64,000 bases of DNA from a virus (IMGVR_UViG_3300020037_003256:155271-219270); one strand, 5' to 3'. Shown: positions 8,022-58,584, counted from the stretch's first letter. Translations and numbers: made by a program. The notes: generated by a model from the letters alone, not told the origin.

Positions 8022-9124
8022 TGCTCTCCAAGAAATTCGCTACGCCATTTCGCGAATTCCACTTCTGGGTTGTTTGTCTGCAGTAAACGCGATACCAAGT
8101 CGTATGCTTGTGGCTCTTCCTCCTTGTTCAGTTCTTCCGGCAGTACCGACAATGGCGTTACTGCGTCTTGTTTACTTCGCTTCGCAGCAGCATAAGCTTT
8201 TACTTTTTCTTCGTTAGGTATCGCCTTGAAATGCAGGATACTGCGGGACTCTGCTATACGCCGAACCCGTCTGACCACGTCAGCCAGCTTCGCATGAAAA
8301 CTCACGCGTAAACGTGGTTTGTGCAGTGCTTGCGGTAGTTCGAGCTCGTTGGCTGCCTTCTCCGCTGCCGCCAACGTGTTTGACAGCTTAGATACGAACT
8401 CATTGACTTCCGCTTCCTGCGTTAACAATGAAGAATCAATCATCAGACGGGACTTTAATTTGTGCTTCGTAAAAGTACCGTCTGAATGGAACATCGCGTA
8501 ATGGTGTGAATCTGGCTCGGTAATATCCTGCTGCGTCGTCGCACCAGTACTCAACACAGCCATTAAGTTACCACCGGCATTTTTATGCGGTTCAAGTTTC
8601 CACGCATGTAAATCACCGGTCTGCATAAACTTGATATGTGCGGGCACCTGGGCAAAGCTTCCTTGCGGAGCGGCCCGTTCTCCCATCCAGTTGGACCAAA
8701 CTTGGTGCGCAACCAGAAACCTTACTTTCTCGGGTATCGCGTCCAGTTCTTGCTGCAACTTAGCGAACGGTTGCCAGTCCAACCCGTAAAAATGAAACCC
8801 ACCGTAGGTAACTATCTTCTTGTGGATATGCGTTGCATGATTGTGTGCACTTAACCACGGTGGGTCGTCGAAGTCATGCTGCCCCTGCGTATATAGGACA
8901 GCAACACCAGCTTCGGCGCATCGCTCAATTTGCTGGCATAAAAACGATATGGTTCTGGAACGGTTAGATTGTTTATCCAGCAAATCGCCAGCCAGCATAA
9001 CGTAATCGACAGCGTTATCTAGCGCTGCATCAATGAGCTGTACAAAAGCGTATTCTTCGTCCGGTTGTTTATTGCTCAAATGCGTATCGGACGCATGCAA
9101 ACCTAGCGGTCGTATTGTAGGCAT
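8018..9124 (-). CDS. sbcD: SbcD/Mre11-like metallophosphoesterase nuclease
   Basis: SDTHL, AGDLLD, GQHD, AHQ and GDLH motifs; overlaps sbcC by 4 bp. Confidence 0.88.
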   Translation of the reverse strand: MPTIRPLGLHASDTHLSNKQPDEEYAFVQLIDAALDNAVDYVMLAGDLLDKQSNRSRTISFLCQQIERCAEAGVAVLYTQGQHDFDDPPWLSAHNHATHIHKKIVTYGGFHFYGLDWQPFAKLQQELDAIPEKVRFLVAHQVWSNWMGERAAPQGSFAQVPAHIKFMQTGDLHAWKLEPHKNAGGNLMAVLSTGATTQQDITEPDSHHYAMFHSDGTFTKHKLKSRLMIDSSLLTQEAEVNEFVSKLSNTLAAAEKAANELELPQALHKPRLRVSFHAKLADVVRRVRRIAESRSILHFKAIPNEEKVKAYAAAKRSKQDAVTPLSVLPEELNKEEEPQAYDLVSRLLQTNNPEVEFAKWRSEFLGEQ

Positions 9125-9146
9125 TCTAAAATCCGTTTTTTAGAAT
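9123..9146 (-). promoter_or_regulatory. Conserved 24-bp dyad motif, copy 1
   Basis: attctaaaatccgttttttagaat; abuts the sbcD ATG and is preceded by a GC hairpin (9146-9171). Confidence 0.75.
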
Positions 9147-9189
9147 GGAGGTAGCGTTTTAGCCACCTCCACTGAAACTACGTTTCATA

Positions 9190-9432
9190 CTACGGTATGT
9201 CTTTCATCAAATGCCGGATCGCTCCGTGCAGCTGCTCCGTAGAAGCGGTTCGTGGAGAATAAGCGTTTTCTCCTTGTTTACAATCTCGGCAGCGAGCTAC
9301 ACGTAGCTTATCCGGGCTTACAAATAACCAGCAGCACTTAATGCACTGCCGAATACCGGGTTTTGCGGGTTCTACTCCCATGGCCAGCACCTCCTTGTGC
9401 GGCCATAATTTTGCCTTACACGTCTCCGACAT
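9190..9432 (-). CDS. Small zinc-finger protein
   Basis: CIKC...CRDC. Confidence 0.55.
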   Translation of the reverse strand: MSETCKAKLWPHKEVLAMGVEPAKPGIRQCIKCCWLFVSPDKLRVARCRDCKQGENAYSPRTASTEQLHGAIRHLMKDIP

Positions 9433-9441
9433 ACAAGACTA

Positions 9442-10011
9442 TTACGCGGAATGTTCTGCGGTTAAGTCTGCTTTTTGCTCCCTCGCTTTCAACATCGCCT
9501 CTCGTATCCATTCCCATACTTCCATAGCCTGCCCATCCCATTGTGCGATAAGTGCACCCGCAGCGTACAACTTGCTACGGGCCTCATCATTCACAAAGTT
9601 GTGGAATGTCTTTATGTCAAATGTAATGCGATTGCACGCAAGCTCCACAAACAACAGCTTTATAGCTGAGGCACAATCCACGTCCATCGGTATGGGTGGA
9701 TTAGTCGGCGTATATCTTGCAAGAAGCAGAAAAGCCAATCCCTGCAACATCTGTTTTACTTCGGGCGGTATTGCTTTTGCCGGTACCCTTTTCGGGTTTA
9801 GCGACTCCGCGAAATCGCTTTGTAAACACCAGTAAGTACTGAAAACAAGCCAGTACTTATAAGGTTGAACTTCTGGCTTATCCGGTTCGTACCAGAATTC
9901 ACCGTTCGACACTAAACGAACAATTTGCTTGCCTTCAGGGTCTGTCACCAGAATAGCTTCTGCCTGTAGCTCTTTCGCGTCTGGTTTACCCTCGGGAGAC
10001 GGGTGCCACAT
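9442..10011 (-). CDS. Hypothetical protein, paralogue of 10013..10822
   Basis: Shares W...P...SNG..WY and VDC..A.K.L.VEL segments with its neighbour. Confidence 0.7.
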   Translation of the reverse strand: MWHPSPEGKPDAKELQAEAILVTDPEGKQIVRLVSNGEFWYEPDKPEVQPYKYWLVFSTYWCLQSDFAESLNPKRVPAKAIPPEVKQMLQGLAFLLLARYTPTNPPIPMDVDCASAIKLLFVELACNRITFDIKTFHNFVNDEARSKLYAAGALIAQWDGQAMEVWEWIREAMLKAREQKADLTAEHSA

Positions 10012-10012
10012 A

Positions 10013-10822: not shown

Positions 10823-10826
10823 CTGC

Positions 10827-11622: not shown

Positions 11623-11623
11623 A

Positions 11624-12230: not shown

Positions 12231-12231
12231 C

Positions 12232-12525: not shown

Positions 12526-12532
12526 ACCGTCC

Positions 12533-13111: not shown

Positions 13112-13123
13112 AAACCCTCCTAG

Positions 13124-14161: not shown

Positions 14162-14179
14162 AGTGCTCCAATAAAGACC

Positions 14180-15029: not shown

Positions 15030-15040
15030 GACGATCTCCT

Positions 15041-16545: not shown

Positions 16546-16569
16546 ATTTTAAAAAACGTTTTTTAGAAT
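16546..16569 (-). promoter_or_regulatory. Conserved 24-bp dyad motif, copy 2
   Basis: attttaaaaaacgttttttagaat, directly after the alpha-CTD gene stop. Confidence 0.75.
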
Positions 16570-28751: not shown

Positions 28752-29657
28752 TTACAGCCGTTCCAGTATGTCAGCGTACTCTGCGGTCATGCCCATTAGT
28801 GTTGGTAACAAGTGTAGGCGATTTGCTTTGATCCACGAGAGTGCGTTCTCGACGTCAATTTCGCACCCGAAGCCCATCTCCTTTTCGGTGCTGTTGACGT
28901 ACGATCGTACGTATCCAAGCGTGCTGGTTACGCCCGGTTTCTTCCCGTCGAAGAACTTCGCCACGTTGTCCGACATGACTTCGTGTTTGAATCCTTCGTC
29001 AGCAAGTTGAAGAATGTCTTCATCGCTTGCTTGTGCAAACCAATCCTGGCATTCAAATGACGAACACGTGTGGTGATCGTCCGAACGGACCATTGCAGCA
29101 ATAGGCTGGAATACCGTTGGGCGCTTCACTTCTTCTGTCGCAGGTACAGCTAACGTTTCCGCTTGCGGTACTTCGATGTTCGCCGGCGCGGTAGTCGTAC
29201 TTGGCGGTACTACCACTTCCGTTGGCACCGATAACGTTTCGGGTTGGTTTTTCGGTGCCTCACCTTCTCGCTGCAATTTGGCTTTCACGGCAACTGTGAC
29301 TTGCTTGTCTTTCGAAGTCGCCAAGCGAAAAGCAACAGTCGCCAGTGTGTAACCTGGGGGGCATACAGCGGCAGCTGCATCACTAGCAATCCGCTTAGGC
29401 GGACAGTCGCTGTGCAGTAGATCGATAAAGTCGTAGGTCATGAAGAACTCGACCTGCAGACTACGGCGAGCCAAAGTAGCCAGTTTCTTTTCTGTCATTT
29501 TTCCGTTGGGCTTTAAGGTAACCGGTCCCTCTGGTACCACGGGCGTAGCGGTTTGCGTTACTGGTGGTGTTGTCGTATCCGGTGTCTTCACTTTAGGTTC
29601 TTTCTTGCTGATCTTTTTGTCGGTCTTCTTGCTGATTGCTTTTTTGCTCTTCGCCAT
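28752..29657 (-). CDS. Hypothetical protein with Lys-rich N-terminus
   Basis: MAKSKKAISKKTDKKISKK; Pro/Thr-rich linkers. Confidence 0.65.
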   Translation of the reverse strand: MAKSKKAISKKTDKKISKKEPKVKTPDTTTPPVTQTATPVVPEGPVTLKPNGKMTEKKLATLARRSLQVEFFMTYDFIDLLHSDCPPKRIASDAAAAVCPPGYTLATVAFRLATSKDKQVTVAVKAKLQREGEAPKNQPETLSVPTEVVVPPSTTTAPANIEVPQAETLAVPATEEVKRPTVFQPIAAMVRSDDHHTCSSFECQDWFAQASDEDILQLADEGFKHEVMSDNVAKFFDGKKPGVTSTLGYVRSYVNSTEKEMGFGCEIDVENALSWIKANRLHLLPTLMGMTAEYADILERL

Positions 29658-29964
29658 TTTCACATTCCTTGAACAAATTAATAACGAGGTTACGGGATCG
29701 TAGCTCACGTAATGCTGCGATACCAAACAAACGATTGCCTAACGCTACAACTTTGCGCTCGAGCGCACTGTCGCACAGGAATTCCAAAACAGCTAACGCC
29801 AGTTTAAATTCCGTTGCGTACGGACTTCTTGCTGCAGCGTGCGTAAGTTGCACAACTGCGGCAAGAGGCGAACGTATGTATCCGCTTTTAATGTCCGCCT
29901 CGACGCCGTCTACAAGCTTGGCAATCTCTTCGACCAACAAACCTTGCCGCTCTTGTTCTTCCAT
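29593..29964 (-). CDS. Hypothetical protein
   Basis: ATG immediately follows dyad motif copy 3. Confidence 0.55.
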   Translation of the reverse strand: MEEQERQGLLVEEIAKLVDGVEADIKSGYIRSPLAAVVQLTHAAARSPYATEFKLALAVLEFLCDSALERKVVALGNRLFGIAALRELRSRNLVINLFKECENGEEQKSNQQEDRQKDQQERT

Positions 29965-29986
29965 TTTAAAAACCGTTTTTTAGAAT
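29963..29986 (-). promoter_or_regulatory. Conserved 24-bp dyad motif, copy 3
   Basis: attttaaaaaccgttttttagaat; contains the upstream stop and abuts the downstream ATG. Confidence 0.75.
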
Positions 29987-39769: not shown

Positions 39770-39793
39770 ATTTTAAAAAACGTTTTTTAGACT
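39770..39793 (-). promoter_or_regulatory. Conserved 24-bp dyad motif, copy 4
   Basis: attttaaaaaacgttttttagact; overlaps the upstream stop. Confidence 0.75.
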
Positions 39794-45425: not shown

Positions 45426-47414
45426 TTAAGCCCAGGGGAAATCCTCGGAGTAACCGCGGCGAGGTGCATCGCTCCAGGCAATAATGGCCTTTTCAGGCTT
45501 GGGTGAGAAGTTGACTACTTTGTAGCCTGCCTGCGTTACTTGGCAGCCTATGGTAATGTCACCACCGTTGTGGTTTAGGCGGATATCCGGGATATCAGCT
45601 TCTCGCATGACGTGGGTAGCCAGTGCCCAGAAACCACCAGAAGCAAACACAATCTGGCTACCGTTCGTGGCCAGACGTTGTCCGCTTCCTGTGTACAGAT
45701 TACGTCCACGCCACCACGACGCTTGTTTAAACCACTGTTCCCGTAATGCGCCTACACGTTTAACCGTCATCAGGTCGTGATAGTGCCAGGCCCCATACAG
45801 TCTGCCTTGTTGCGGGTGATTCGCTTTTATGGCTTCTGCTAGCTGTACCATCCAATTAGCTTTACGACACCAACTGTCGTCATCGAACCAGCACAGATAC
45901 GGTGTGACAATAGGTAGCTCTTCGTCCCAAAACATCTCTCGCATTGCCGGATATTTACGACGAGATTCTGTATCTACGTAGAGCTTACTGACTAACGGCC
46001 CAAGGCTCTTTGCGTAAGAAAGAACCCGGGCTGATGGCTGATTTAAGGCTATCCGCAGATCGTATCTGTGCCTTGGGCACGTATCTGTTATGGATTGAAT
46101 GCACCGTTCTAGCAGGCCTAGGTTGTCCGCATGGCCCAGAACAAATAACGTGAATTTGCCGCCTATGTACGGATGATCCAGAAGCGCAAAGTCTGGAGTC
46201 TCGTCTACTCGGGGTTCTACCTGTTTCGGAAACACCGTATTCCATTGCTTGTTCCATACGCCTAACTTAGGTGCAGGCCCTAGCGTAGATAAGGGTTTCT
46301 TCTGCGCTGGCTGTGCAGGTGAGGGTGCCGGTTCAGGTTCTGATTCTGGTTCGGTAGGCTGCACGGGTTCTACAACTGGTAACGGATAATGCTTTTTCAC
46401 GGCTCCAATCGGAGGCAGAATTCCCTTTTCGTAATAGTTCATGACGGCCTCAATGACATGCTCGGGTGTTATCATACGCATACATTCAGGAAGGGCCTGC
46501 TGCCCAACCGTTACAGGTCTACGGCATAGTCCATCGGCGTTCGCAGGTAGCGTGTCTGCCACGGTGATTGGAACCGTTTTTGTTCGCCAGCATCCGCGGT
46601 CCAGGTTGCGGATACCGCAATCAAGCAATCCGATCGTGTGAAGATACGTGTGTTCTACTGCTACAGGTTTACATGTCTCGCCGAAAGACGTAGGGAAGAA
46701 GCAGTTCGTATAAGACTCCCACCAAGGGGCTTCGCGTCCACCTGCGATAACAACACACGGTTTATCGTAAACTGCGGCTATGTGCATGGCTGCCGTGATA
46801 CCGCAGATCACACCTTCGGCTCCCGCTATGAGCGAGAACAGCCTACGCTCGCTTCCGCGATCACCTACGAACTGTTCCACGTTATCTAGCCGCGGGTGGA
46901 AATGATTTTTGAAATCTCCGATGGCTTGAATACAGCGAATACCCATCTTTCCTAAAGTAGATACGACGTGTTGCCAGTATGCTGCGGACCAGACCTTAAC
47001 AGTCATATCTAGTTTGCCGCCTGCTACCACAACCCAGTATCGTCCTTCCGGTTTTGTTTGCGATTCTTTCGGTGTAAGGTGAATATCGCCTTTCGGTTCT
47101 GTAACAGGCACACGTATGCCAGTGATCGTCTCGAAACTATGGTGGAACCAACTCAAGAAGTGCTTTCTGAGCCCACCGTTGTTACACTTCGATATACCCC
47201 TTGCGTACTCTACTTCGACTAGTTGTCCTTTGGTGTCAGGAGTAGTCTTTTGGCAGTACGGGTTATTTATCCACGCGACGTTGCTGTAATGCCCGCCGAC
47301 ATGAATATCGTATTGGCCGGGATACGCTCGCTGTATATCGCGTACAAGCGCTGAGAGACATATCGTGTCACCCAATGCCCAGTGGTTATGTAGGATAAGC
47401 GTATGCTTTTTCAT
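45426..47414 (-). CDS. Fused glycosyltransferase (GT9/heptosyltransferase-like plus GT-A/GT2-like)
   Basis: ALGDTICLSALVRDI, K.WS, GITAAMHIAAVYDKPCVVI and CMRMITPEHV; Pro-rich linker; WFDDDSW DxD motif. Confidence 0.82.
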   Translation of the reverse strand: MKKHTLILHNHWALGDTICLSALVRDIQRAYPGQYDIHVGGHYSNVAWINNPYCQKTTPDTKGQLVEVEYARGISKCNNGGLRKHFLSWFHHSFETITGIRVPVTEPKGDIHLTPKESQTKPEGRYWVVVAGGKLDMTVKVWSAAYWQHVVSTLGKMGIRCIQAIGDFKNHFHPRLDNVEQFVGDRGSERRLFSLIAGAEGVICGITAAMHIAAVYDKPCVVIAGGREAPWWESYTNCFFPTSFGETCKPVAVEHTYLHTIGLLDCGIRNLDRGCWRTKTVPITVADTLPANADGLCRRPVTVGQQALPECMRMITPEHVIEAVMNYYEKGILPPIGAVKKHYPLPVVEPVQPTEPESEPEPAPSPAQPAQKKPLSTLGPAPKLGVWNKQWNTVFPKQVEPRVDETPDFALLDHPYIGGKFTLFVLGHADNLGLLERCIQSITDTCPRHRYDLRIALNQPSARVLSYAKSLGPLVSKLYVDTESRRKYPAMREMFWDEELPIVTPYLCWFDDDSWCRKANWMVQLAEAIKANHPQQGRLYGAWHYHDLMTVKRVGALREQWFKQASWWRGRNLYTGSGQRLATNGSQIVFASGGFWALATHVMREADIPDIRLNHNGGDITIGCQVTQAGYKVVNFSPKPEKAIIAWSDAPRRGYSEDFPWA

Positions 47415-47929
47415 AGTTGTACTGCGGCCAGTGTGTGTACCAGTTTGAAGGGTCGCGATAATCGCCAAGTATCAACAGCTGCCTTGACGCCAGGAAAGCC
47501 AACATGACCGTAGTCATGAAACAGCAGTAAGCCGTCTGGTTTAATCAGTGGGGCCACTACGCGGATGTTAGACATAACCGCATCGTACGTATGCTCCCCG
47601 TCAATTAACGCTAAGTCAAAGCTGTGTGGTTGGATTAGCGGGCAGGCAGCTTCTGCCGTTGCCACGATCGTAATCACCTTGTCTTCTACGCCATGAGAGT
47701 ACACGTTCTCGCGAAACGTCGGAAAAGTGTCGCGGTTTCGCGTTACCTCGCAACGGTCGAAAGGATCGATAGCCACGACACGCTTGGCAACCTTGGCCAT
47801 AATAATGGTGCTAAGCCCCTTGAACGATCCAATCTCTACCACATGTTTACCGATAGCTAATCGTTGCAGCTCTTCGCCTTCCAGCGGATGCATCCAACCA
47901 GCTACGTGTTCTGGGAACGTGAATTCCAT
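47411..47929 (-). CDS. Class I SAM methyltransferase (Methyltransf_24-like)
   Basis: VVEIGSFKGLST, IDPF, LIDGEHTY and FHDY...GVKAAV. Confidence 0.88.
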   Translation of the reverse strand: MEFTFPEHVAGWMHPLEGEELQRLAIGKHVVEIGSFKGLSTIIMAKVAKRVVAIDPFDRCEVTRNRDTFPTFRENVYSHGVEDKVITIVATAEAACPLIQPHSFDLALIDGEHTYDAVMSNIRVVAPLIKPDGLLLFHDYGHVGFPGVKAAVDTWRLSRPFKLVHTLAAVQL

Positions 47930-49236
47930 TATATTCTCCTAGGTCCGGGGTAGTAATTAGCGTCATCGTCTTTGAGCGCCATACCGTCCCAAAGTACATA
48001 CGGAATGAAGTTTTGTTTGTGGAAATCGCTCGGATAGTAATTGTAGAGTCGCACGGTCTGGAACCTGCACTTCACATCACCATTCTGATACTTGGCATAC
48101 TCTGCGTCTGTGTAGTACCAAAAGTTATTCGGAGACCAGAAGCTTTTATGGTCCGGGTCCTGATAAGCACCACGCCCGACCTTGCCTTCAAAATCGCTCA
48201 CAGCAGGCGTGTGGGTCAGAAGATAGCCGCCAGGGACCAATCTACTGTATAGCAGATTCATCAAGCGAGTCACTTGGCCGATAGCCACATGCTCTAAAAA
48301 ATCGAAAGCCCTAAAACAGCCAACACTGTTTTCTGGGATTTTATTTTCGAGCACGTCGAATACGTCACCAGAGTAAGGGTCACTGCTAGGTAAACTGCGA
48401 TCGATCGGTCTAAAGCCTGGCGGCGAATTATGTGCTCCACCTAAATCCAACATGGCGAGACCGTTGCGACTACACCACTCTTCGATCAACGGATGAAGAT
48501 ACCGATCGCGAGTGCGTTGGCTGGTGACCGTGATGTTTTGAGCTTGTCTGCCGCTGGTAGTTGCTGCGCTCATCCGGTGCAGATACAGAGGCCTACAGAT
48601 ATGCACAAACCTGACACCTTTCAAATACGTGCGAACGATTAGATCGTGGTCGTCCCCGACTGGCAAAGTTGTATTGTGCCCTCCGGCGACGCGATAGGCT
48701 CCACGTGTCCATGCTCTTACGTGATCTGGTGCGTACAGGATCTCGCACAAGCTTCGTGGTGTGATGTTGTATGCGCGGTTGACGCGGTATGTTCGCCCGT
48801 TGTGTGCCCAGTCGTAATGTTTCCAACCGAATTCTGGCAAGAAAGCCTGACTGACTCCTTCGAAAGTGACGGATACGCTGTCTGAGTATAGAAACGTGAT
48901 TGGCGATTCCTTGCTCAGCGTATCCGCAATAGTGTGTAGGCAGTCTGGGGTGATTAAGTCATCGTGATCGTATTCGACGAATACGTCGCCTGTGCAGTGG
49001 TCACAAGCAAAGCGTTTCAAGGCTCCGATTCCTGTTACGTTGGCCGGAGCCGGCTTGATCCGAACACGCGGGTCATTCGTGGTCAGTTGCTTTACGTAAT
49101 CATGGATTACGTTTGACAGCTCGCCATTAGGGACTACGACCCACTCCCAGCGCTCGTATGTTTGTTGTTTGAGGCACCGCCAAACATCGTCCAGATAGGT
49201 GGGATTGTGCGTCGGTGTGAATACGCTCAGCAGCAT
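47929..49236 (-). CDS. GT2 glycosyltransferase fused to methyltransferase-like domain
   Basis: SVFTPTHN, YDHDD and GDDHDL; C-terminal LDLGG, DFLEH, LVPGG and QDPDHKSFW. Confidence 0.85.
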   Translation of the reverse strand: MLLSVFTPTHNPTYLDDVWRCLKQQTYERWEWVVVPNGELSNVIHDYVKQLTTNDPRVRIKPAPANVTGIGALKRFACDHCTGDVFVEYDHDDLITPDCLHTIADTLSKESPITFLYSDSVSVTFEGVSQAFLPEFGWKHYDWAHNGRTYRVNRAYNITPRSLCEILYAPDHVRAWTRGAYRVAGGHNTTLPVGDDHDLIVRTYLKGVRFVHICRPLYLHRMSAATTSGRQAQNITVTSQRTRDRYLHPLIEEWCSRNGLAMLDLGGAHNSPPGFRPIDRSLPSSDPYSGDVFDVLENKIPENSVGCFRAFDFLEHVAIGQVTRLMNLLYSRLVPGGYLLTHTPAVSDFEGKVGRGAYQDPDHKSFWSPNNFWYYTDAEYAKYQNGDVKCRFQTVRLYNYYPSDFHKQNFIPYVLWDGMALKDDDANYYPGPRRI

Positions 49237-49288
49237 TGTAGAGTTCCAGATAGTAAAGATACGAGACCAGAACTCTACGCGATCTGCT

Positions 49289-52021
49289 TTAATAATTAAA
49301 GTCCTGCTTACCTGCTTCCGTCGTTTCTAGCCAACTAAGCTCAGCGTCTGTCGGGTCACGGTAGCGTGCAGTTTTCCCTAACTCGATGCCGGACACGCGA
49401 ACCACAATCTTGTTGACCTCGTTTAAAGGCGATACCTCGATAACTACATCGCTACCGTCTACATAACCACCAGCAACGGCAGCCCGGTCACAAATGACGG
49501 ACACAACTTCAATAGAACCTGGTTGACACGCTGAGACATAAACACTGTCTAACGGTTTACGTAATTGCGTAACGGTCCCCTTAGCCACGCGATCCGTAAG
49601 CGTTAATTGGTCGTCAACGCGGGAATGCGGCATCGTGACGGGCGAGGCAAATTTATACTCAAACGTTCCTGGTTCCTCTGTGGGAAGTCGCATTACCGTA
49701 GCCACTGGAGCCATCATTAATGGTTGTCCGCCAGGACAGTTAATACAGTCTCCTTGTGGTCCTTGGTATCCCTGATACCCTTGGTACCCCTGATACCCTT
49801 GGTATCCCTGATACCCTTGGTATCCCTGGTATCCCTGATACCCTTGGTATCCCTGATACCCTTGGTATCCCTGATACCCTTGGTATCCCTGGTATCCCTG
49901 GTATCCCTGGTAGCCTTCTCCCTGATAGCCTTGATACCCCTGGTATCCTTGGTAGCCTTCTCCCTGATAGCCTTGATACCCCTGATACCCCTGATACCCC
50001 TGGTAACCACTACCAGAACCAGAACCAGGAGCACCCTGATACCCCTGATACCCCTGATACCCTTGACAACCCACAGGTATGCCGAAAGAAAAATCAAAAG
50101 TCCAGTGTAGACAATCTTCTATCGAAATTGTCACGTTGACGTACGGATCATAGTCGCACGGCAGCGCTTCGGCGTATACAAGTACGTCATCTATAATCGG
50201 AGACGGGCACGGGATAGAAGCAGTTAGCTTCAACTCGTAGTCGCAGTCTGTAAGACTTTTTTCGAAGTAGTATCGGATAAAGCCTTGAACACCGGTGCCC
50301 CAGTAGAAGTACGCGTAAGTCGGTATTTGCGGCACGATGTACGGACACGGAACTTCGGCAAGGATGCGTAATTCGTAATCACAATCCGTTTTAACGAAAT
50401 AGTATCGCAGGTAACCTTGAACACCATTGGCAGTGTAAAAGTAGACGTACGTGGCTACTTGCGGCGTAATGTGCGGACATTGTATATCTGCATCTATGGT
50501 TAATGTCCAAGTGCAGTCACTAGACAACGTGAAGTAGTAACTTAAGTATCCTTGTGTTCCGTTGGCCGTGTAGAAGTAAAGGTATGTGGCGGAAGAAGGC
50601 AACATGGTGGGGCACATTGCCGGAAAGTCCGCGTCGATCACTAACTCGTAATCACAACCAGTTTTTTCAAAGTACCACGAAATGTACGCCTGTCCGCCCG
50701 GCGCAGTATAGAAATATAAAAACTGCGCAACAACCGGCGTGAACGCAGGACAAGGTACATCAAGCGTAATGTCCAGGTCGTACTCACAGCCGCTACCTTT
50801 AACAAAGTAATAGGCTAACGTACCTTGCGTACCTGCGGCAAAACCGACATATACCGTTCTGGACGTGCTAGGCGTCAACGGCGGACACAGATACTCGAAA
50901 TCGATATCCAGGGTCCATTCGCACTCGGAAGCTTTGCTGAAATAAAACGTAAGCTTTGGCGATCCAGTCGTTATCTCTGTCCCTGTGATTACCGTTGACG
51001 AGTCTGGTTTCATGTCGGGACACGGAACCGTAAACTCAATATCCAGAGACAGGTCCCAAGAACAATCTGCACCAGCCGTGAACCCGTACACGACGGTCAA
51101 GTACGTACTTGTGAATGCCGTAGTGGGGTATAGCGGTGTCAGTTGCGGACACGGCGAGTCAAAATCTATATCAAGATCGAAATCGCAGCCTGTTTTCGTG
51201 AATCCAAAAGTCAGCGAACCCTGGCTGCCTGCTGCAAAATTTACGTACTTTGTGGTCGGCGAGATCGGCGTAATGACAGGACACGGTACATCAAGCGTGA
51301 TGTCTAGGGCGTAATCGCACTCAGCACTCTTCGTGAATCCAAAATGCAGCGTACCTGTGTTCGTGCCGCCGCCAGAAAACTCCACAGTGTAGGACGTAGG
51401 CGAGATCGGAGTAATGGTCGGACACGGAAGGTCCAAATCAAGATCGAAGTCCCAATCACAGTCGTTAAGCCGCGAGAATCCGAACGTAAGCGTACCGTCG
51501 CCATATGCAATTGTTTTAGTTGTAGACGACAAGCCAGCTGCCGTAAGCTGCGGGCAATGAAACTCTGCATCTAATGAAAACTCAAAGTCACAACTTCCGG
51601 CTGCGTCTTCTGGGGCCAACGGATCACAAGCGACAGGACTGAAACCATACGTAATCTTGCTAGGACCGCTTGTGAATGGGACATTGCCTTCCAGCGGGTA
51701 GACTGGTAAAGGCTTAGGGCATGGTATGTTAAGCTCCAAGGCCAAATCAAAGTCACAACACACGCCCTGCGTGATCGTGAACACCATGTTAGGTGGGTTA
51801 CACTCGGATGTTCCACCGTAGGTGAATTCACTAGTACCGACCGCTATCTGCGGGCACGGTGGTTCTAGTGGCATGGTTAGTGGTTCGTCTACGCAGTCAG
51901 CGATTTGGTCTGGCGGCTCGCTGATACGCGGATCTACCAGCATGTTTTCACATGGCGGGATCTTCGTCACACTAGCAACGGGACACTTTTCCGGATCAAA
52001 GGCCAAGTTGTCGTTGGACAT
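49289..52021 (-). CDS. Tail/capsid fibre protein with Cys-rich repeats and GYQ collagen-like domain
   Basis: 13 CP...C repeats of about 45 aa, FDFSFGIP.G junction, about 29 GYQ triplets. Confidence 0.75.
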   Translation of the reverse strand: MSNDNLAFDPEKCPVASVTKIPPCENMLVDPRISEPPDQIADCVDEPLTMPLEPPCPQIAVGTSEFTYGGTSECNPPNMVFTITQGVCCDFDLALELNIPCPKPLPVYPLEGNVPFTSGPSKITYGFSPVACDPLAPEDAAGSCDFEFSLDAEFHCPQLTAAGLSSTTKTIAYGDGTLTFGFSRLNDCDWDFDLDLDLPCPTITPISPTSYTVEFSGGGTNTGTLHFGFTKSAECDYALDITLDVPCPVITPISPTTKYVNFAAGSQGSLTFGFTKTGCDFDLDIDFDSPCPQLTPLYPTTAFTSTYLTVVYGFTAGADCSWDLSLDIEFTVPCPDMKPDSSTVITGTEITTGSPKLTFYFSKASECEWTLDIDFEYLCPPLTPSTSRTVYVGFAAGTQGTLAYYFVKGSGCEYDLDITLDVPCPAFTPVVAQFLYFYTAPGGQAYISWYFEKTGCDYELVIDADFPAMCPTMLPSSATYLYFYTANGTQGYLSYYFTLSSDCTWTLTIDADIQCPHITPQVATYVYFYTANGVQGYLRYYFVKTDCDYELRILAEVPCPYIVPQIPTYAYFYWGTGVQGFIRYYFEKSLTDCDYELKLTASIPCPSPIIDDVLVYAEALPCDYDPYVNVTISIEDCLHWTFDFSFGIPVGCQGYQGYQGYQGAPGSGSGSGYQGYQGYQGYQGYQGEGYQGYQGYQGYQGEGYQGYQGYQGYQGYQGYQGYQGYQGYQGYQGYQGYQGYQGYQGYQGYQGYQGPQGDCINCPGGQPLMMAPVATVMRLPTEEPGTFEYKFASPVTMPHSRVDDQLTLTDRVAKGTVTQLRKPLDSVYVSACQPGSIEVVSVICDRAAVAGGYVDGSDVVIEVSPLNEVNKIVVRVSGIELGKTARYRDPTDAELSWLETTEAGKQDFNY
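49752..50066 (-). repeat. 9-bp coding tandem repeat (Gly-Tyr-Gln)
   Basis: Units such as GGGTATCAG/GGATACCAA. Confidence 0.95.
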
Positions 52022-52029
52022 TATGACTC

Positions 52030-52977
52030 CTAGCAGCTTTCCGATCGTGCAGAGATGGAGTCAAAGCACAGCGCCAGACCACTCATGTTCACGTTGATAA
52101 TTACACGGTTGTCCTCGGGACTTCCCGTTATTGTTACGCCTTTACCGGCAATCAGATTAAGCTGAGGACCACCTGCACCGTTGATTGACCGAATCGTTTC
52201 GTTGCATCGCGGACCGCCCTCCAACAACGTACTGTTTTCTGCAGGTGCTTCCCCGTCGTACAGCTCGACAGGCGTACACGGCTCTCCGGCACCATCGCCT
52301 ACAGCAGCACCGATCGTTATCGAGTTATCTGTGCTGCTTTGCCGTACGTTGGCGTTGTAACCCGGCACGAACACGACATCACCAACAACGCAGTTGGATT
52401 TAATATGTATGATATTTGACGTATCTACGATTTCGCCACATCCTAGTGCCGGCTGCACTCGCGTCCGGTCGTCATTAGCTACGGCAAATTTTACCACGAA
52501 GCTTTCAGCCAGATTCTGAATCAAACCGGGTTCTACGACACCCACGCACGCAATTACTCCGTCTGTGGGTAGGGCAGCCGTAAGCGATTCCGCTTTTCCT
52601 GTCGTCAGGAATCCGGACCATAAAGGTTCTTCGCACGCGTACGGTGACGCGGTGCTGCCAGACTCGCTGGACTCAGACAACCCAGATGTACCAGAGTCAA
52701 GGAACTCCACGTAAAAGTCAGGGTCAGTGACGTGGCGAGAGAACGTAAGTGCTAGCCCGTAAAGTTCTGGGGCGTCACTCTGAAAATCAAAGTAGAAATA
52801 CGATGCTTGTCGGCGTACCGCGGCAAGCCAGATACGGTGTACGCCGGTCTTGAACCGTGTCTTAGGTCCGACGATGAACCCAGCATCAACCACTAAGGTG
52901 TTTGGTGGCGAGTTATCGGAAGGCACGAACGGGTAAGCACGATTGCCGTTCTCATTAAAGAATGCTGGACTTGCCAT
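52030..52977 (-). CDS. Putative tail/baseplate structural protein (NxxxxYP family)
   Basis: NENGNRAYPF; IRSING. Confidence 0.65.
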   Translation of the reverse strand: MASPAFFNENGNRAYPFVPSDNSPPNTLVVDAGFIVGPKTRFKTGVHRIWLAAVRRQASYFYFDFQSDAPELYGLALTFSRHVTDPDFYVEFLDSGTSGLSESSESGSTASPYACEEPLWSGFLTTGKAESLTAALPTDGVIACVGVVEPGLIQNLAESFVVKFAVANDDRTRVQPALGCGEIVDTSNIIHIKSNCVVGDVVFVPGYNANVRQSSTDNSITIGAAVGDGAGEPCTPVELYDGEAPAENSTLLEGGPRCNETIRSINGAGGPQLNLIAGKGVTITGSPEDNRVIINVNMSGLALCFDSISARSESC

Positions 52978-52999
52978 TTTAAAAACCGTTTTTTAGATT
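52976..52999 (-). promoter_or_regulatory. Conserved 24-bp dyad motif, copy 5
   Basis: attttaaaaaccgttttttagatt fills the entire gap between stop and ATG. Confidence 0.75.
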
Positions 53000-53822
53000 A
53001 CGCGTCCGTCACAGAACCCACGGCACCAATCTCAATTCCGTCCGCTACGCTAGTAATTCGCAACACAGTATCCGCAGCTAAATCATTAGCCACAGTTACA
53101 ATCACGTTTCCGTCTGCATCCGGTGGTACAACGAAGTCCATATTAGGCCCAATAACGCGAAGCTGTTGCAGAAACTTGGGAGTTTGAAACAGGTTATTAG
53201 GCTGGCATAGGCGTCTACGGAACAGAGGATCACCAACTACATCGATTCGAATCTGTCTGATATCTTGTGTCTGGCATGTGCCCGGGACAGGTACAACCTT
53301 GTCCGAAACACTGAAAACTACACCGTCGTCACCTACCAACCACACGTCACCCACAAACAGCTCTCCCGTATCTAACCGTATTCCTCTTACACCTATCTCC
53401 GGCGTCGGGAACACACAGGAAGCACAGAACTCGGTTTGTTTCGGTTCGAACTCGTGAGTGCCAACACCCCAAGACTGAAATAGCCCAAGACGTCTGCCTT
53501 CGCTTACCAACACGCCCGCGGGTCTTCCGTAGGTGTCGTACAAGCTAACCTGATCTGGCGGATTAATCAGCTCGAACTCGCCCGATGCGAGTTCAGTGTT
53601 TGCTTGTGTGCCGACAAACACTTTGGTTTTTTGAAAACCAACAACTACCTTCGTTATGTACAACCCTGCAGAGTTGCCGATGGGGTACATCGCTGCATCC
53701 AAGAACGTACCTTCGGTCAGTATCCGCCCAGCCCCGTTAACTAAGGTGGCCTCACTAGAAAACGGGTACTTAGTCGGGTCGTTCTGCTTCCGCCATTCTG
53801 GAAACAGTATACGCTCTGCCAT
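52998..53822 (-). CDS. Putative structural protein (NxxxxYP family)
   Basis: EWRKQNDPTKYPF. Confidence 0.65.
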   Translation of the reverse strand: MAERILFPEWRKQNDPTKYPFSSEATLVNGAGRILTEGTFLDAAMYPIGNSAGLYITKVVVGFQKTKVFVGTQANTELASGEFELINPPDQVSLYDTYGRPAGVLVSEGRRLGLFQSWGVGTHEFEPKQTEFCASCVFPTPEIGVRGIRLDTGELFVGDVWLVGDDGVVFSVSDKVVPVPGTCQTQDIRQIRIDVVGDPLFRRRLCQPNNLFQTPKFLQQLRVIGPNMDFVVPPDADGNVIVTVANDLAADTVLRITSVADGIEIGAVGSVTDA

Positions 53823-55525
53823 TAGTCTGTCTCCGCGATGGTGAGATACGCAAATCGGGATATAGCTCGGTTCGTCCCTATGCCAAATTTCCCGGTCGTA
53901 GGTTGGTAGTTAGAGACGTCTACCGCCAAAGTCAGATCTAAGGCACCAACGTCACTGATTGATTCCAGCCTTGCCGTGATGTTCACCGAACCGGCGACGA
54001 GCCCAGGAAGCACAGTTACTGTGATTCTGTACCACTTATCTAGCTGAATACCAGGTACTGCGATGGACGCAGGTGCCACTACCTGAAACGTTGTGCCGTT
54101 AAAACGGAGCAAGCGGAACGTCTGAGTGTTGTAATCGATTTCTGCTGCAAAATACACGTACTGATTTGGCAAAGTCGTATGCGGTCTGTAATTGATTACA
54201 AGCTGTGCATTCTGCTTAGCTCCCAAAGGTCCTTGCAGAAGTTTGACTTCTGTTACGGCCTTGCGGTATGCAGTTGTCGTGTCTACGGCAGTCAAAGCCA
54301 CGTTACGATTCGCGGCTGTGCCAGACTGTTGACTACCGACAGGCAACACTTCTTCGAACGCTGTCGATAAAGACGCCGACGCAGACTCAGACAGTGACAC
54401 AGACACAGGGTACGGTACGAACGTGCTTTCGCACAAATGCGTCGGACTGTCGTCTTCAACGTATTGCCAAAGACCAATGACCGTATCCAAAGAGCTAACG
54501 CCGCCTGTAAAACATTCGACGTAAGGTAGGTCTAAATTGTTAAGGTACGATATACTGTCCATCGGCTCTAAAGGCGGACCTGGTATATCCGGAGGCACCG
54601 GTATATTTGCCGGCGAGTACTCTGTCGGTAGCAGACCATCGCTAGACGGGATCTGTGCTGGAAGGCACGCATCTACCAAACCGAGTTGACACGCAACGGC
54701 GATACCTGGTTTGTCTGTGACCTGCGCTAACTGCGTACACCCACGAAACTCTAAGGTCAGTGTACCGTCACAATCCGGGGCCACCGCATTCACGAACTCA
54801 ATCGGATGCGGACAACCACACGTCTTGGATTCAGGTCGGCCCGAACAAGGGCCTGCAAATTGTTGAAACAGGCTTACTGGCTTATACCCTGTAATGTCAG
54901 ACGCTTGTGTCGGGACAGGGAAACCATCTGCACCTGTGTTATCAGTCAAGCGTACAACAATACAGTCACGTAACGCACCGTTTAGAAATCGTTCTTCTTT
55001 CGCAATAGCCAACGGCTCCGACACACGCAACGTCACTACGCCTGTTAGTTTGTCCGCAGCGTTATCCGCTTTAACGGACTGAACGGGCAATGGACGATAC
55101 GGTCTAGCGGCCCGTTGGGTTAGTCTGCTCTGTAATGGTGTTGTGAATCGGCCTCGGTAATCCGCGGAATCTACCCCAGAACCGAATACGATCCAACCGG
55201 CAACGCCGGGTACCTGCGGTTGCAACGCATAGACACGTCCTACCGCAATCGGCTTCATAACACTAATCACGGCGAGCGGAATGAAACCACCAGGTGTCTC
55301 CAGTGAGTCTGCAGCTTGTATTGTGATAGTAGTCAGTACCGGTGTGTTCGATACCGCGGTTATAAACGCGAAATCCCCTAACGTAGAGGGCCATCGCAAA
55401 CTAATGTCAGAGATCAAATCAGAAGGAAGACGTTTGCCGCTGTCGTCGTCACACGTAGCCGCGTCATCGACCGGGTAGGCCCGTCCTTCGTTCGCGTTGT
55501 ACCAATGACTATTTCTGACCGGCAT
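53822..55525 (-). CDS. Putative structural protein (NxxxxYP family) with C-terminal ConA/LamG-like strands
   Basis: WYNANEGRAYPV; FVNAVAPDCDG; LDKWYRITVTV...GKFGIG. Confidence 0.65.
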   Translation of the reverse strand: MPVRNSHWYNANEGRAYPVDDAATCDDDSGKRLPSDLISDISLRWPSTLGDFAFITAVSNTPVLTTITIQAADSLETPGGFIPLAVISVMKPIAVGRVYALQPQVPGVAGWIVFGSGVDSADYRGRFTTPLQSRLTQRAARPYRPLPVQSVKADNAADKLTGVVTLRVSEPLAIAKEERFLNGALRDCIVVRLTDNTGADGFPVPTQASDITGYKPVSLFQQFAGPCSGRPESKTCGCPHPIEFVNAVAPDCDGTLTLEFRGCTQLAQVTDKPGIAVACQLGLVDACLPAQIPSSDGLLPTEYSPANIPVPPDIPGPPLEPMDSISYLNNLDLPYVECFTGGVSSLDTVIGLWQYVEDDSPTHLCESTFVPYPVSVSLSESASASLSTAFEEVLPVGSQQSGTAANRNVALTAVDTTTAYRKAVTEVKLLQGPLGAKQNAQLVINYRPHTTLPNQYVYFAAEIDYNTQTFRLLRFNGTTFQVVAPASIAVPGIQLDKWYRITVTVLPGLVAGSVNITARLESISDVGALDLTLAVDVSNYQPTTGKFGIGTNRAISRFAYLTIAETD

Positions 55526-55546
55526 TCCGTGTCTCCAGACTTATTA

Positions 55547-56995
55547 CTAGCAGTTGCAGTTAAACTGCGGTTGCCCTGCGTTAAGTGCCGCTATTTTGGT
55601 GTTCAACGCCCGCACCGGAACCGTGTCAACGATCTCAGCTGCCTCCCATATATCAGACAGCCAAGACGGCACTTCGACGTTTGCCATTTCGCACGGATCA
55701 CCAGACTCCGGATTACCGGCAGCATCCGGTATATGCACAGTCATCGTCACTTCCAGCGACTCGTCTGCGGCACAGTCTGTGGTGCAGAATTTAAACTTAG
55801 CCACGGATGAATCCTGGGGATTAGCATAATCGAAGAAGAATCGAGCCACTTGCCTTGCCTGCAGGGGCGGATACCGTTCGTCGCCGTCTGTGTTTGAGCC
55901 GCTTATGTAAGAATCATTGACAGAGCCGCTCGTCCAAGTCACGAGGCTACCGTTCTTGTACCGCTGAAACGTAAATCGAAATTCGATCTGCGTTAAACAG
56001 CACGACGTAAAGTTACAGAAACTACCACCTACGAATGTCTTACATATGAAGTCTGTAGCCAGAATAAGCCTCGCCGGATTGTTAATACGACAATCGCGGC
56101 TAGCATCCCATCTGGATCTGTTCTGCTCGTACGTGTCCCGGACAGTCTCCGCTTTTGCCGCAAGAGCTCTCCAGTTTGCCCATTGTCGCTTCAGCCCTCT
56201 GTACGTGCGAACGAAGTAGTCACATTCGCAGCACGGGTGACAATCACTCGTTGCGCGAAGGGCGTGCTGCGCCTCTTCCGTCGTTAGGCCAGACGCGGCG
56301 TGCACGGCAGTTCTTAGTGAATCCATGTCACCTGTAACCGCCAGTGGTGGGCCTATCCGGAAACACGGATCTACTTCAATTCTAAAGTTACCCGCACAGT
56401 CTGGTCCCTGTTGGTTTATCTTTCTTGCGACGGGTATTAAGTCTTCACAGCCGTCGACCTTGCCCGCCCCGGCACCAGCTACCGCGTCTATATTCAGCTG
56501 CGAGCGAAAACGACCACCGTCCGTAATGTCTGTAGCGATATTCCCAGACATAGCCATGTTGTAACCGGCAGCGAATTGGAAAGCGCCTACAGCTTTAACA
56601 AAACCAACACTGATTGACTTGACTCTGTTCGGTAAACGGTTACACGTCCTAGCATCCAGTACGCCAACACCGCCTGTACCTGTGGCGACTACAGCACGGA
56701 ATACAACGGTTTCAGTGGTCCATTCGTAAACCGTACGCGAACCCCAACTACGACTTATTGCTGCTGCTGTGTTACCGGAAAACACGGTGCCGGCGTTGGC
56801 ATCCGTAATGCTCCAGTCTTCTCCGCTGACTGTAAGCGTGAATGGAAGTTCGAGACTGCAGGTGTCGTCTTCGTACGAGACGTACGCATCTAACACGCTA
56901 CCGGCTAGCGACGTGTTCACTACGAACGGATAGTTCGTACCGCCTGATGGTTGTTGATTTACCGCGGTACGCGCTACAGCATCGTTAGCGTCCAT
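55547..56995 (-). CDS. Putative structural protein (NxxxxYP family)
   Basis: GTNYPF; KINQQGPDCAG; CHPCCEC followed by coiled coil. Confidence 0.65.
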   Translation of the reverse strand: MDANDAVARTAVNQQPSGGTNYPFVVNTSLAGSVLDAYVSYEDDTCSLELPFTLTVSGEDWSITDANAGTVFSGNTAAAISRSWGSRTVYEWTTETVVFRAVVATGTGGVGVLDARTCNRLPNRVKSISVGFVKAVGAFQFAAGYNMAMSGNIATDITDGGRFRSQLNIDAVAGAGAGKVDGCEDLIPVARKINQQGPDCAGNFRIEVDPCFRIGPPLAVTGDMDSLRTAVHAASGLTTEEAQHALRATSDCHPCCECDYFVRTYRGLKRQWANWRALAAKAETVRDTYEQNRSRWDASRDCRINNPARLILATDFICKTFVGGSFCNFTSCCLTQIEFRFTFQRYKNGSLVTWTSGSVNDSYISGSNTDGDERYPPLQARQVARFFFDYANPQDSSVAKFKFCTTDCAADESLEVTMTVHIPDAAGNPESGDPCEMANVEVPSWLSDIWEAAEIVDTVPVRALNTKIAALNAGQPQFNCNC

Positions 56996-57002
56996 GAGGT
57001 CC

Positions 57003-57251
57003 TCAATGCGTTGCTGGATGTACCACGCAGTAGAACGGCGTGTCGAATACTATCTTCTCGCCATCCACGCTTTCCACTTCTGTAACGGGATGGCGAGGAA
57101 CTTGTAGCGTCACAGTTGCGTCGACAGGTATGCCGTTCTCTTTGGCGATCATCACGGTTTCGTACTGGCCATACCGTAAACGTTCTTGACGTCCATCTGC
57201 GTGAATTTTGGTTGCAGTAGTCACTTGTGGAAAGGTTAGCTGCTTACTCAT
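57003..57251 (-). CDS. Hypothetical protein
   Basis: ORF from MSKQLTF. Confidence 0.5.
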   Translation of the reverse strand: MSKQLTFPQVTTATKIHADGRQERLRYGQYETVMIAKENGIPVDATVTLQVPRHPVTEVESVDGEKIVFDTPFYCVVHPATH

Positions 57252-57253
57252 TT

Positions 57254-58213
57254 TTACCCACACTGGATGCAAGATCGGTCATTTAACTTGGCACCGAGCA
57301 CAATTAGATTCATTGTATCCACGGCATTCTGCAGACGGGATACGAAGTTGTCGACGCTGGTCGCTTGTGCCGCAAAGCGTTCTAGATCCGTGGTGATGCG
57401 TTCCAGTTCGACGCAGCCGCAACAAGGCTGAGCGCACACGTCTTTTATCCGGATACCGTTGGGAATAGATTCGATCTGCAGGCAATCGTTACCTACGAAC
57501 GTAAAGTCGCCGCTGTTAGTTGGTGTGACGTTATTGATCCTTGTGATAGGAGTGGAGAGGGCTGAATCCCCTTCACAAACGCAGTCTTGGATCGTCCCTT
57601 CCCCGGAGATGGCACTGAATGTAATAACGGTGTCCTGCCCGGCTTGCACCACCGGAACTATCCGCATGTTGGGGCCGGCCACTAACTCGATATCGCCATA
57701 TAGTGGCACGCTCCGTTGATCGCCACTCACTACCACGATACTGGATACACCACGGATGATAGGACGTACCGCGTCTGGATCTAGTCTAGCTTTGTCGAGC
57801 GTGAACTCCCAAAATCCAGGTGGCTGTTCATCAATGTTCTCCAGTCGCCCGATCACTATCTTACCTACGGTGTCTACGAAATCGTTGATGCCGCCCAAAG
57901 CAAATACTGCGTTTCGTGTAAAACCTTGACGAGGTATCAGGGCAGTAGCGACGTTGACCGTCGTAGACGCATCCGCGGACTGGTAGGCAATTGTTAATCC
58001 GTAACCGCTTGCATACGCAGACACACTTCGTACGAAGAAACCAGCAGGACCTACGTTGAGACCGGCATGAATAGGCAAATCCAGTTCGACAATGAAGTCT
58101 TCCGGAAGTTTAAACAACCCCGTAGTGTCCACAGCTTCAGCGTCGTCTGCTAGCGGGTACCGACGTTGTGCGTTGTGGTTTAGCCACTCTAAGGACCAAT
58201 TACCTACAGGCAT
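57254..58213 (-). CDS. Putative structural protein (NxxxxYP family)
   Basis: EWLNHNAQRRYPL; RINNVTP; CAQPCCGC followed by coiled coil. Confidence 0.65.
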   Translation of the reverse strand: MPVGNWSLEWLNHNAQRRYPLADDAEAVDTTGLFKLPEDFIVELDLPIHAGLNVGPAGFFVRSVSAYASGYGLTIAYQSADASTTVNVATALIPRQGFTRNAVFALGGINDFVDTVGKIVIGRLENIDEQPPGFWEFTLDKARLDPDAVRPIIRGVSSIVVVSGDQRSVPLYGDIELVAGPNMRIVPVVQAGQDTVITFSAISGEGTIQDCVCEGDSALSTPITRINNVTPTNSGDFTFVGNDCLQIESIPNGIRIKDVCAQPCCGCVELERITTDLERFAAQATSVDNFVSRLQNAVDTMNLIVLGAKLNDRSCIQCG

Positions 58214-58215
58214 GG

Positions 58216-58539
58216 CTACACTCCATTCGTTGAGAACTCTTTAACCACGTAGTCAGCCTTCTTAATTTCAGAGGAACATCCGCGGTGGCGTGCCTCGTCC
58301 ACGGATTGTGCGGCCCAGCTTAAAACGTCTCTGCCGCTTGGGCTTCGCCAACCGTTTGTATCCGGTTGAAACGTTGCGATGGTTACGTCCGGTTTACCTT
58401 CCCCGTGCGGGTAAGGTTCTGCGGTAAGCTTCATGTCCATGGCACTGACGGAAGTAAAAGGTCCCAGCACCGTGACGTATGGCTCATCGCTATATGTCAG
58501 TGTGACAAGTAATAGACTAGCGGGGGCGGACTGTCGCAT
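58216..58539 (-). CDS. Hypothetical protein
   Basis: GGAG SD inside palindrome gtactccggagtac. Confidence 0.55.
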   Translation of the reverse strand: MRQSAPASLLLVTLTYSDEPYVTVLGPFTSVSAMDMKLTAEPYPHGEGKPDVTIATFQPDTNGWRSPSGRDVLSWAAQSVDEARHRGCSSEIKKADYVVKEFSTNGV

Positions 58540-58560
58540 AGCTGTACTCCGGAGTACCGC

Positions 58561-58584
58561 ATTTCAAAAAACGTTTTTTAGAAT
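58561..58584 (-). promoter_or_regulatory. Conserved 24-bp dyad motif, copy 6
   Basis: atttcaaaaaacgttttttagaat, directly after a stop codon. Confidence 0.75.

Follow-up and report, generated by a model that had tools for sequence, protein, structure and literature searches.

The DNA analysed here, a window of 64,000 nucleotides, is the last 64 kb (bases 155,271-219,270) of the 219,270-bp genome of an uncultured jumbo phage from IMG/VR (IMGVR_UViG_3300020037_003256, here called G000), which is estimated to be 98% complete. Its subject is a 24-bp dyad, ATTCTAAAAAACGTTTTTTAGAAT, that recurs at gene junctions. G000 has a GC content of 50.4%, a coding fraction of 93 to 97%, and about 252 of its 258 genes (about 97%) on the minus strand; genes were called with a simple codon-usage caller, which places small-gene starts only approximately and leaves some imprecision as to whether a few of the motif copies fall within or between genes. 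A megablast search with 12 kb against GenBank phages gave no match, and a search with an SbcC protein pattern returned no close relative. Comparison was made with four genomes, G003, G004, G005, and G007, found via a conserved head-module protein and fetched whole, a small set that excludes the closest relatives of G000 (65 to 70% identity in the head protein). The copies of the dyad in the window and the features next to them are as follows (window coordinates).

9123..9146, minus strand: motif copy 1, with the centre variant CGGA; its last bases are the ATG of an SbcD/Mre11-like gene
9147..9170, minus strand: GC-rich hairpin adjoining copy 1 on its 5' side (gap of 0 nt), with no T-run after the hairpin
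8018..9124, minus strand: SbcD/Mre11-like phosphoesterase gene, the one that comes first after copy 1; the motif is also present 7 nt upstream of the orthologue in G005
16546..16569, minus strand: motif copy 2, with a perfect core; a stop codon lies 3 nt before it and a 134-aa gene led by a Shine-Dalgarno (SD) sequence 23 nt after it
29963..29986, minus strand: motif copy 3, with centre CGG; its own ATG starts a 123-aa open reading frame (ORF) without SD
29593..29964, minus strand: the 123-aa ORF, starting with the ATG of copy 3 and without homologue in G004 or G005
39770..39793, minus strand: motif copy 4, with a perfect core; the 267-aa gene upstream terminates at the motif's TAA, and an SD-led start follows 13 nt after the copy
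52976..52999, minus strand: motif copy 5, with centre CGG; a stop codon lies 2 nt before it and its own ATG starts a 315-aa gene
52030..52977, minus strand: the 315-aa gene, upstream of a collagen-like fibre gene, starting at the ATG of copy 5
58561..58584, minus strand: motif copy 6; the stop codon of a 608-aa gene lies 3 nt before it and an SD-led start 25 nt after it

When the window was searched with the 16-bp core of the dyad, allowing up to three mismatches, only six matches were returned (9127, 16550, 29967, 39774, 52980, and 58565, each with 0 to 2 mismatches), and these correspond to the 24-bp blocks at 9123, 16546, 29963, 39770, 52976, and 58561. In 100 dinucleotide shuffles, the average number of matches was 0.46 and six were never attained. 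All six copies listed in the original prediction were recovered in this way, and what it had said of their setting, namely that five follow or overlap a stop codon, that five end in ATG, and that three of these ATGs are gene starts lacking an SD, was borne out. The minus-strand stop lies 3 nt before the core matches at 16550 and 58565 and 2 nt before that at 52980, the motif's own TAA serves as the stop at 39774 and probably also at 29967, and at 9127 the nearest ORF ends 47 nt before the copy. The ending AATG is found in five of the six copies, and at 9124, 29964, and 52977 its ATG opens an ORF with no room for an SD.

Genome-wide, the same core search yielded 23 copies, and a reversed control pattern yielded none. 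In the alignment of these copies on the coding strand, conservation ends sharply at the borders of the 24-bp dyad and no conserved sequence was found outside it, so that there is no separate -35-like box. The first position is A in 23 of 23 copies, and its mirror position is T in 21. The two arms differ in strictness: the 5' arm (tcTA on the coding strand) is perfect in 17 copies and the 3' arm (TAga) in 6, with 13 versus 2 discordant copies (exact McNemar p = 0.007, counted by hand). In its relaxed form the 3' arm consists of a T-run and two purines, the latter in each of the 23 copies, with A and G about equally frequent. All three variants with a CGG centre share one direction. The earlier claim that the copies always have the same orientation therefore stands in part. 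The directional bias of the arms is genome-wide, while the shared orientation as such has little meaning, because the core is palindromic and nearly all genes lie on one strand. The dyad is the sole strongly enriched non-SD word in the intergenic DNA of G000. Its exact 20-mer was found in no other IMG/VR contig, and the 72 single matches of the exact 16-mer, in AT-rich contigs, were judged to be due to chance.

About 18 of the 23 copies fall between genes, within the small non-coding fraction of the genome (a few percent). Typically, a stop codon lies 2 to 3 nt before the core or is provided by the motif's own TAA, and in most cases the next start follows 2 to 48 nt after. An SD-like tetramer is present in 83 to 87% of genes, in contrast to the SD-less starts at the motif. 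Behind the motif, lineage-specific genes are not enriched (8 of 18 versus 48% genome-wide), and no copy adjoins the single tRNA(CUA) of G000. The intragenic copies at genome positions 7226, 36208, 64600, and 91593 use motif frames without a stop, and a weak fifth match, at 44595, resembles the motif by virtue of its coding sequence, which G005 conserves at the protein level. Those at 64600 and 91593, in unrelated genes, share the same frame (…ASLKNVF…) and a common 5' flank, GCGAGTC; they could be internal promoters or reflect a short shared insertion.

The DNA just upstream of the motif is structured. In G000 the preceding 45 nt have a mean folding energy of -11.2 kcal/mol, compared to -6.5 at other gene ends (p = 2e-7), and in G005 the corresponding values are -15.7 and -10.1 kcal/mol (p = 9e-6); the stretch upstream of copy 1 in the window reaches -19.2 kcal/mol. 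Downstream windows showed no extra structure relative to random windows. In G005, textbook terminators consisting of a hairpin and a T-run touch the 5' side of several copies (e.g., 76188, 94022, 154840, and 64782). The placement of a hairpin or terminator next to the motif would correspond to a terminator-then-promoter layout. At genome positions 23880-23915 (locus L001) the motif copy forms the centre of a perfect 36-bp palindrome, and beyond it, near 23800-23830, there is a hairpin with a T10 terminator and then AGCTATCA; a T-run with the same AGCTATCA ending also closes about 10 terminators in G003.

The motif's own RNA hairpin, in comparison, is weak, with -5.8 kcal/mol for the consensus and an overall range of -0.9 to -8.2; the folds of two window copies (-1.6 and -3.5 kcal/mol) are no better than those of shuffles, and the G005 type has -0.9. 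An intrinsic Rho-independent terminator was rejected on these grounds, the true terminators being separate and upstream. Alternatively, the phage polymerase might terminate or pause at the motif without a hairpin, in either direction and by recognising a specific sequence or an oligo-T stretch. This reading would draw on the T6 run present on each strand, the even spacing of the copies (see below), their position 2 to 3 nt after stop codons, and the precedents of oligo-T termination by archaeal RNA polymerase (RNAP) and Pol III and of the class II signals of T7. We nevertheless regard it as very improbable. Such a site would be redundant, because genuine hairpin terminators lie immediately upstream of many copies, and it would leave the genes with their ATG inside the motif without a promoter and the strict 5' arm without a role. 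Moreover, no copy follows plus-strand genes, hence none is found at a convergent gene end.

The same hairpins bear on the possibility that the motif acts in RNA, either as the target of a sequence-specific endoribonuclease or as an A/U-rich element for translation (re-)initiation on a polycistronic mRNA. The upstream hairpins would then protect the new 3' ends, and cleavage would leave an AUG near the 5' end. This would fit the SD-less AUGs 0 to 9 nt downstream, with an SD appearing where the motif is absent, as well as the stop codons 2 to 3 nt upstream, which would permit termination followed by re-initiation, and the identical coding-strand arms of the two motif classes that we find in G005. 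However, the hairpin formed by the motif RNA is weak and often no better than shuffles, and covariation is absent, since it is the sequence of the arms itself that is conserved; a structured, RNase III-type processing site, which would call for a conserved, covarying helix, was rejected for this reason. In addition, the centre of the motif flips to its reverse complement in G005, which makes no sense for an RNA loop, an ordinary SD stands behind most copies, where an enhancer would be superfluous, and the classical terminators directly upstream in G005 imply that there is little read-through RNA to process. Taken together, a role at the RNA level seems unlikely to us.

The copies are also spaced more evenly than random choices of gene junctions would be, with a coefficient of variation (CV) of 0.50 in G000 (p = 4e-4) and p values of 1e-4 in G005 and 0.01 in G004. 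Even spacing and dyad symmetry are both features that a DNA-level site for genome organisation, replication, or packaging (matS-, parS-, or SlmA-like) might have, and the four intragenic copies in open frames would suit such a site as well, its intergenic location then being a consequence of the stops contained in two of the three motif reading frames. G003 might offer a parallel, since this 190-kb genome carries an unrelated, evenly spaced palindrome that is mostly inside genes. The short and fixed distance of the motif to gene starts, the dependence of the SD-less genes on it, and its directional arms speak against a site of this kind, as does its conservation at orthologous junctions, whereas the G003 palindrome sites are not positional equivalents. 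No protein with a ParB_N domain (PF02195) was matched in G000, while control genomes were matched, and a parS- or KorB-type ParB site was rejected accordingly. We consider a genome-organising function to be a very unlikely explanation.

The G003 palindrome, an 18-bp sequence, AGTGGAGACGTCTCCACT, is present in 25 copies (loci L095-L104, e.g., L096:14174-14191) and in 13 to 14 copies in each of two partial relatives. Its spacing has a CV of 0.50 (p = 6e-4), and it contains no stop codon in any frame. As an equivalent of the G000 motif it was rejected, given that 18 of the 25 copies are intragenic and that their mean distance to G000 motif sites is 3.0 kb versus an expected value of about 3.0 kb. 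Two regions of G003 (74.5-76.3 kb and 106.6-109.4 kb; L098 and L100) further hold 7 to 8 copies of a sigma-70-like promoter (TTAATYCA, about 12 nt, GCGTCATAAT), several of which come after a palindrome copy and a terminator. Promoters of this TTAAT..CATAAT type were absent from G000, G004, G005, and G007. The repeated words first seen in G004 and G007 proved to be coding tandem repeats and were discarded, and so was a link to VIPR/RAMP, the vrRNAs being GGY/NN tandem repeats unrelated to the motif.

Diverged versions of the G000 motif are present in two of the relatives. G004 (183 kb, 66% GC) has 8 copies of CTAAAAAACGGATTTT, 7 of them on the coding strand, and G005 (235 kb, 62% GC) has about 18 to 29 diverged versions, among them about 12 copies of CTAAAAGCCANTTTTGAGAA and 5 to 10 of CTAAAAAGTGGATTTTGA; the well-matched ones are almost all intergenic. 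The two G005 classes (loci L105-L116) have the same coding-strand arms and reverse-complement centres (GCCA versus GTGG). The GTGG class is mostly found in structural modules and the GCCA class mostly elsewhere (Fisher test by hand, p of about 0.03, post hoc), and the two may represent two temporal classes. No motif was found in G003 or G007.

Orthologous junctions carry the motif before the 315-aa gene and the gene for the C-terminal part of beta' (G000, G004, and G005), before SbcD (G000 and G005), and in at least five more cases. At the 315-aa junction the ATG lies 0 to 4 nt after the motif and none of the three genomes has an SD; the protein is conserved from the motif-borne methionine onward in two relatives, which shows that this gene start is real. 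A metagenome scan with the 315-aa protein added seven further junctions. In L156 and L160, CTAAATTCCGGATTTTG, with a palindromic centre, lies 5 nt before the start of the 315-aa gene, and in L159 the palindrome CAAAAACTGTTTTTG lies 15 nt before it (8 nt when its GGAG flank is counted). In L154, L157, and L158 the motif is absent from this junction and an SD is present instead. As judged from these sequences, the family form is an A-tract, a short GC-containing core, and a T-tract followed by a purine, with a dyad tendency in several lineages. The G000 version is the most symmetric, those of G004, G005, and three metagenome contigs being diverged and less so.

This recurring symmetry is what might be expected of an operator bound by a dimeric phage or host regulator. 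As a global repressor or activator, such a protein would control when about 20 transcription units are expressed, with its sites either coinciding in part with weak promoters or obstructing the polymerase where units meet. In G000 the two-fold symmetry is near perfect over 24 bp, and symmetric A-tract/T-tract arms recur in G004, G005, L156, L159, and L160. The flipping of the centre in G005 and the conservation of an inverted copy at one junction are likewise compatible with a symmetric binder, and sites dispersed over junctions resemble P1 C1 operators, KorB OB sites, and L5 stoperators. On the other hand, the centre, where operators usually tolerate change, is the most invariant part of the motif, and its arms are directional (p = 0.007). 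Since no other promoter element is conserved beside the sites, the operator would have to include the promoter. A binder was not found, and neither a tyrosine integrase nor a ParB_N protein was detected in G000, although other integrase types and helix-turn-helix proteins were not surveyed. A Methyltransf_24 protein (172 aa, window 47411-47929, minus strand, in the tail-fibre region), whose gene alone in G000 has a homologue by BLASTP in G003 while lacking one in G004, G005, and G007, was considered as a binder shared by G000 and G003 and rejected. We thus view an operator as a doubtful explanation of the motif.

The phage brings its own transcription machinery. A single beta gene was found in G000 (Rpb2_6, E value of 1e-50), together with a split beta', the N-terminal part of which has the catalytic Rpb1_2 domain (4e-21) and the C-terminal part Rpb1_5 (3e-20). 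The three genes form one cluster at genome positions 46105-57372, outside the window (loci L079, L138, L140, and L139, with the sigma gene), and a motif copy (50483) lies inside this cluster just before the gene for the C-terminal part of beta', as it does in G004 and G005. Beta is encoded at 54169-57372 and the N- and C-terminal parts of beta' at 52126-53883 and 46105-50448, respectively. Amid structural genes, at genome positions 4417-5172, a further gene encodes a 251-aa protein. A 28-sequence profile of it matches the SigA, RpoD, RpoS, and FliA structures in the PDB over regions 2.x to 4.2 (7e-8), and the Pfam domain Sigma70_r3 is found in many homologues. Only this profile search succeeded; searches for Sigma70_r2 and single-sequence searches against Pfam and the PDB and by tblastn gave no match to the 251-aa protein. 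The profile match supports its assignment as a divergent sigma-70-family factor. A T7-like RNAP (PF00940) was not matched in G000, in a search with an uninformative control.

By its beta subunit, the closest cultured relative is Salmonella phage Arash (32% identity). According to its genome paper, Arash packages beta, beta', and sigma into the virion (PMC10585845). In the Arash genome (OQ632216.1; loci L142-L151) we find 18 copies of TGGTATAAGTAA, a 12-nt extended -10-like motif, without exception on the coding strand; in the listed flanks, the visible start codons follow 15 to 52 nt downstream. TGGTATAAGTAA probably marks the chief class of promoters in Arash. A search of the paper's text for promoters, terminators, and repeats retrieved no mention of TGGTATAAGTAA (PMC10585845).

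Taking these features together, we infer that the 24-bp dyad is a promoter read by the phage's own RNAP, a reading to which we assign a probability of about 0.5. It is favoured because the phage has its own beta, beta', and sigma, because the motif is a unique intergenic word kept at orthologous junctions, and because hairpins precede it and SD-less starts follow it; it also accounts for a strict upstream arm combined with a relaxed downstream arm and for the purines after the T-run. In the proposed mechanism, the polymerase (beta, split beta', and the divergent sigma-70-family factor) would recognise the strict upstream arm and the centre (TCTAAAAAACG), the T-run would be the part that is easily melted, and transcription would start at the two variable purines after it (pyrimidine at -1, purine at +1). 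With each copy a new transcription unit of roughly 5 to 20 kb would begin, the upstream hairpins and terminators closing the previous one. Leaders would usually be 13 to 50 nt long and carry an SD, but where a G follows the motif's AAT the leader would be only about 3 nt, giving a near-leaderless mRNA. The spread of the copies over different modules fits a phage with a single polymerase set. Among the four roles offered in the original prediction, the phage-specific promoter is thus the one we retain, while the operator, the RNA processing site, and the parS/matS-like site have lost ground. Contigs from four possible RNA-Seq runs of wastewater are fragments of 150 to 500 nt at a depth of 2 to 14, with no ends or joints at the motif, and were used as evidence neither way.

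Several observations weigh against a promoter and keep our estimate at its present level, chiefly the symmetry, the flipped centres of G005, the conserved inverted copy, and the absence of the motif from G003 and G007, none of which the promoter reading explains. Promoters rarely show dyad symmetry, which here recurs in G000, in L159, and in the centre shared by L156 and L160; possibly, an added dimeric regulator or a structural requirement is responsible. In G005 the central 5 nt occur in both orientations, and at one junction the copy is inverted in both genomes that carry it (59867 in G000 and 64782 in G005). G003 and G007 lack the motif, yet keep the sigma orthologue and its region 4.2 helix. 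Four or five copies in G000 lie inside genes, and the even spacing would also suit a role in DNA organisation. Finally, the motif fits no known -35/-10 geometry; three genes, whose N-termini are taken to be real, have their ATG directly next to its sole TAnAAT-like hexamer, so that transcription from this hexamer would begin within the gene. With that hexamer at the ATG and no conservation outside the 24 bp, a canonical sigma-70 promoter with -35 and -10 boxes was rejected.

Conceivably, the dyad is a new kind of transcription "punctuation" for a phage RNAP with a sigma factor and is read through the two-fold geometry of its A-tract and T-tract and would give evenly sized units and near-leaderless mRNAs. 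The DNA might then be recognised in an extruded or pre-melted state, as in the hairpin promoters of N4 but by a multisubunit enzyme, or else jointly with a dimeric factor. We hold this to be decidedly unlikely.

A promoter for the phage's own polymerase has clear counterparts. According to a review, every jumbo phage that encodes an RNAP has a motif of its own, rich in A and T, which lies upstream of early operons and is recognisable by bioinformatics; where transcripts have been profiled, this motif has always turned out to be the early promoter consensus (PMC7598289). G000 resembles these phages in having its own multisubunit RNAP and one conserved AT-rich motif upstream of operons in the coding orientation, and in that the motif, which differs from phage to phage, was found by sequence alone. 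The known jumbo-phage motifs, however, measure about 10 nt, have their centre near -10, and lack dyad symmetry, in contrast to the 24-bp dyad of G000. Likewise, the known polymerases come as two sets with beta and beta' in four or five pieces and no sigma-70-family factor, whereas G000 has one polymerase set and a recognisable sigma, with motif copies before both structural and replication genes. To our knowledge, work on phage multisubunit polymerases has centred almost exclusively on the phiKZ/AR9 group, in which a sigma factor is lacking.

Other dispersed elements share some of these properties. The stoperators of cluster A mycobacteriophages (L5 gp71) and the C1 operators of P1 also occur in tens of copies, in tiny gaps, touching stops and starts, and in all modules. 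They are asymmetric sites of 13 to 17 bp in temperate phages with a known repressor, unlike the dyad of G000, for which neither an integrase of the tyrosine type nor a repressor was identified. PeSL (promoter-early stem-loop) cassettes of T4-type phages similarly place a stem-loop and then a promoter-type signal at the boundaries of gene blocks, with some copies beside lineage-specific genes, although in G000 without enrichment; PeSL promoters are host sigma-70 early promoters, and their order and sequence differ from those of the G000 motif. The OB sites of plasmid RK2, about a dozen identical palindromes bound by the ParB-family protein KorB at varying distances from promoters, have in common with G000 their dispersal near promoters and arms of the TTTAG/CTAAA type, but the order of the arms is opposite and no ParB_N domain was found in G000. 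The early promoters of the N4 virion RNAP are inverted repeats as well, and in both phages the polymerase is probably delivered with the virion. The N4 enzyme is single-subunit and reads a 5- to 7-bp stem with a 3-nt loop extruded from supercoiled DNA, whereas in G000 the enzyme is multisubunit and the arms are homopolymer tracts of A or T.

Phage-specific AT-rich promoters for phage multisubunit polymerases are already known; the novelty here is a candidate of this kind that takes the form of a 24-bp dyad, occurs in a clade with a sigma factor, and combines conserved near-leaderless starts with even spacing. The literature searched contained no description of the transcription signals of this phage group. 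DNA nearly identical to window positions 50000-59900 is present in aquatic and wastewater metagenome runs of several studies (sampled-word shares of 0.2 to 0.56), from which it follows that a phage of the G000 type recurs in these habitats.

In summary, this wastewater and aquatic clade combines beta, a split beta', and a sigma-70 relative with a single, sharply defined candidate promoter that can be traced at the same junctions. Should the promoter reading be wrong, the even spacing and the symmetry would point to a still-unknown function at the DNA level. If it is true, the phage would provide an added case of conserved near-leaderless expression in a genome that otherwise relies on strong SD sequences, and if confirmed, the motif and its enzyme would constitute a compact, orthogonal promoter/polymerase pair. 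The divergence of the candidate promoter across relatives offers a ready set of sequences on which DNA recognition by a minimal, divergent sigma could be tested.

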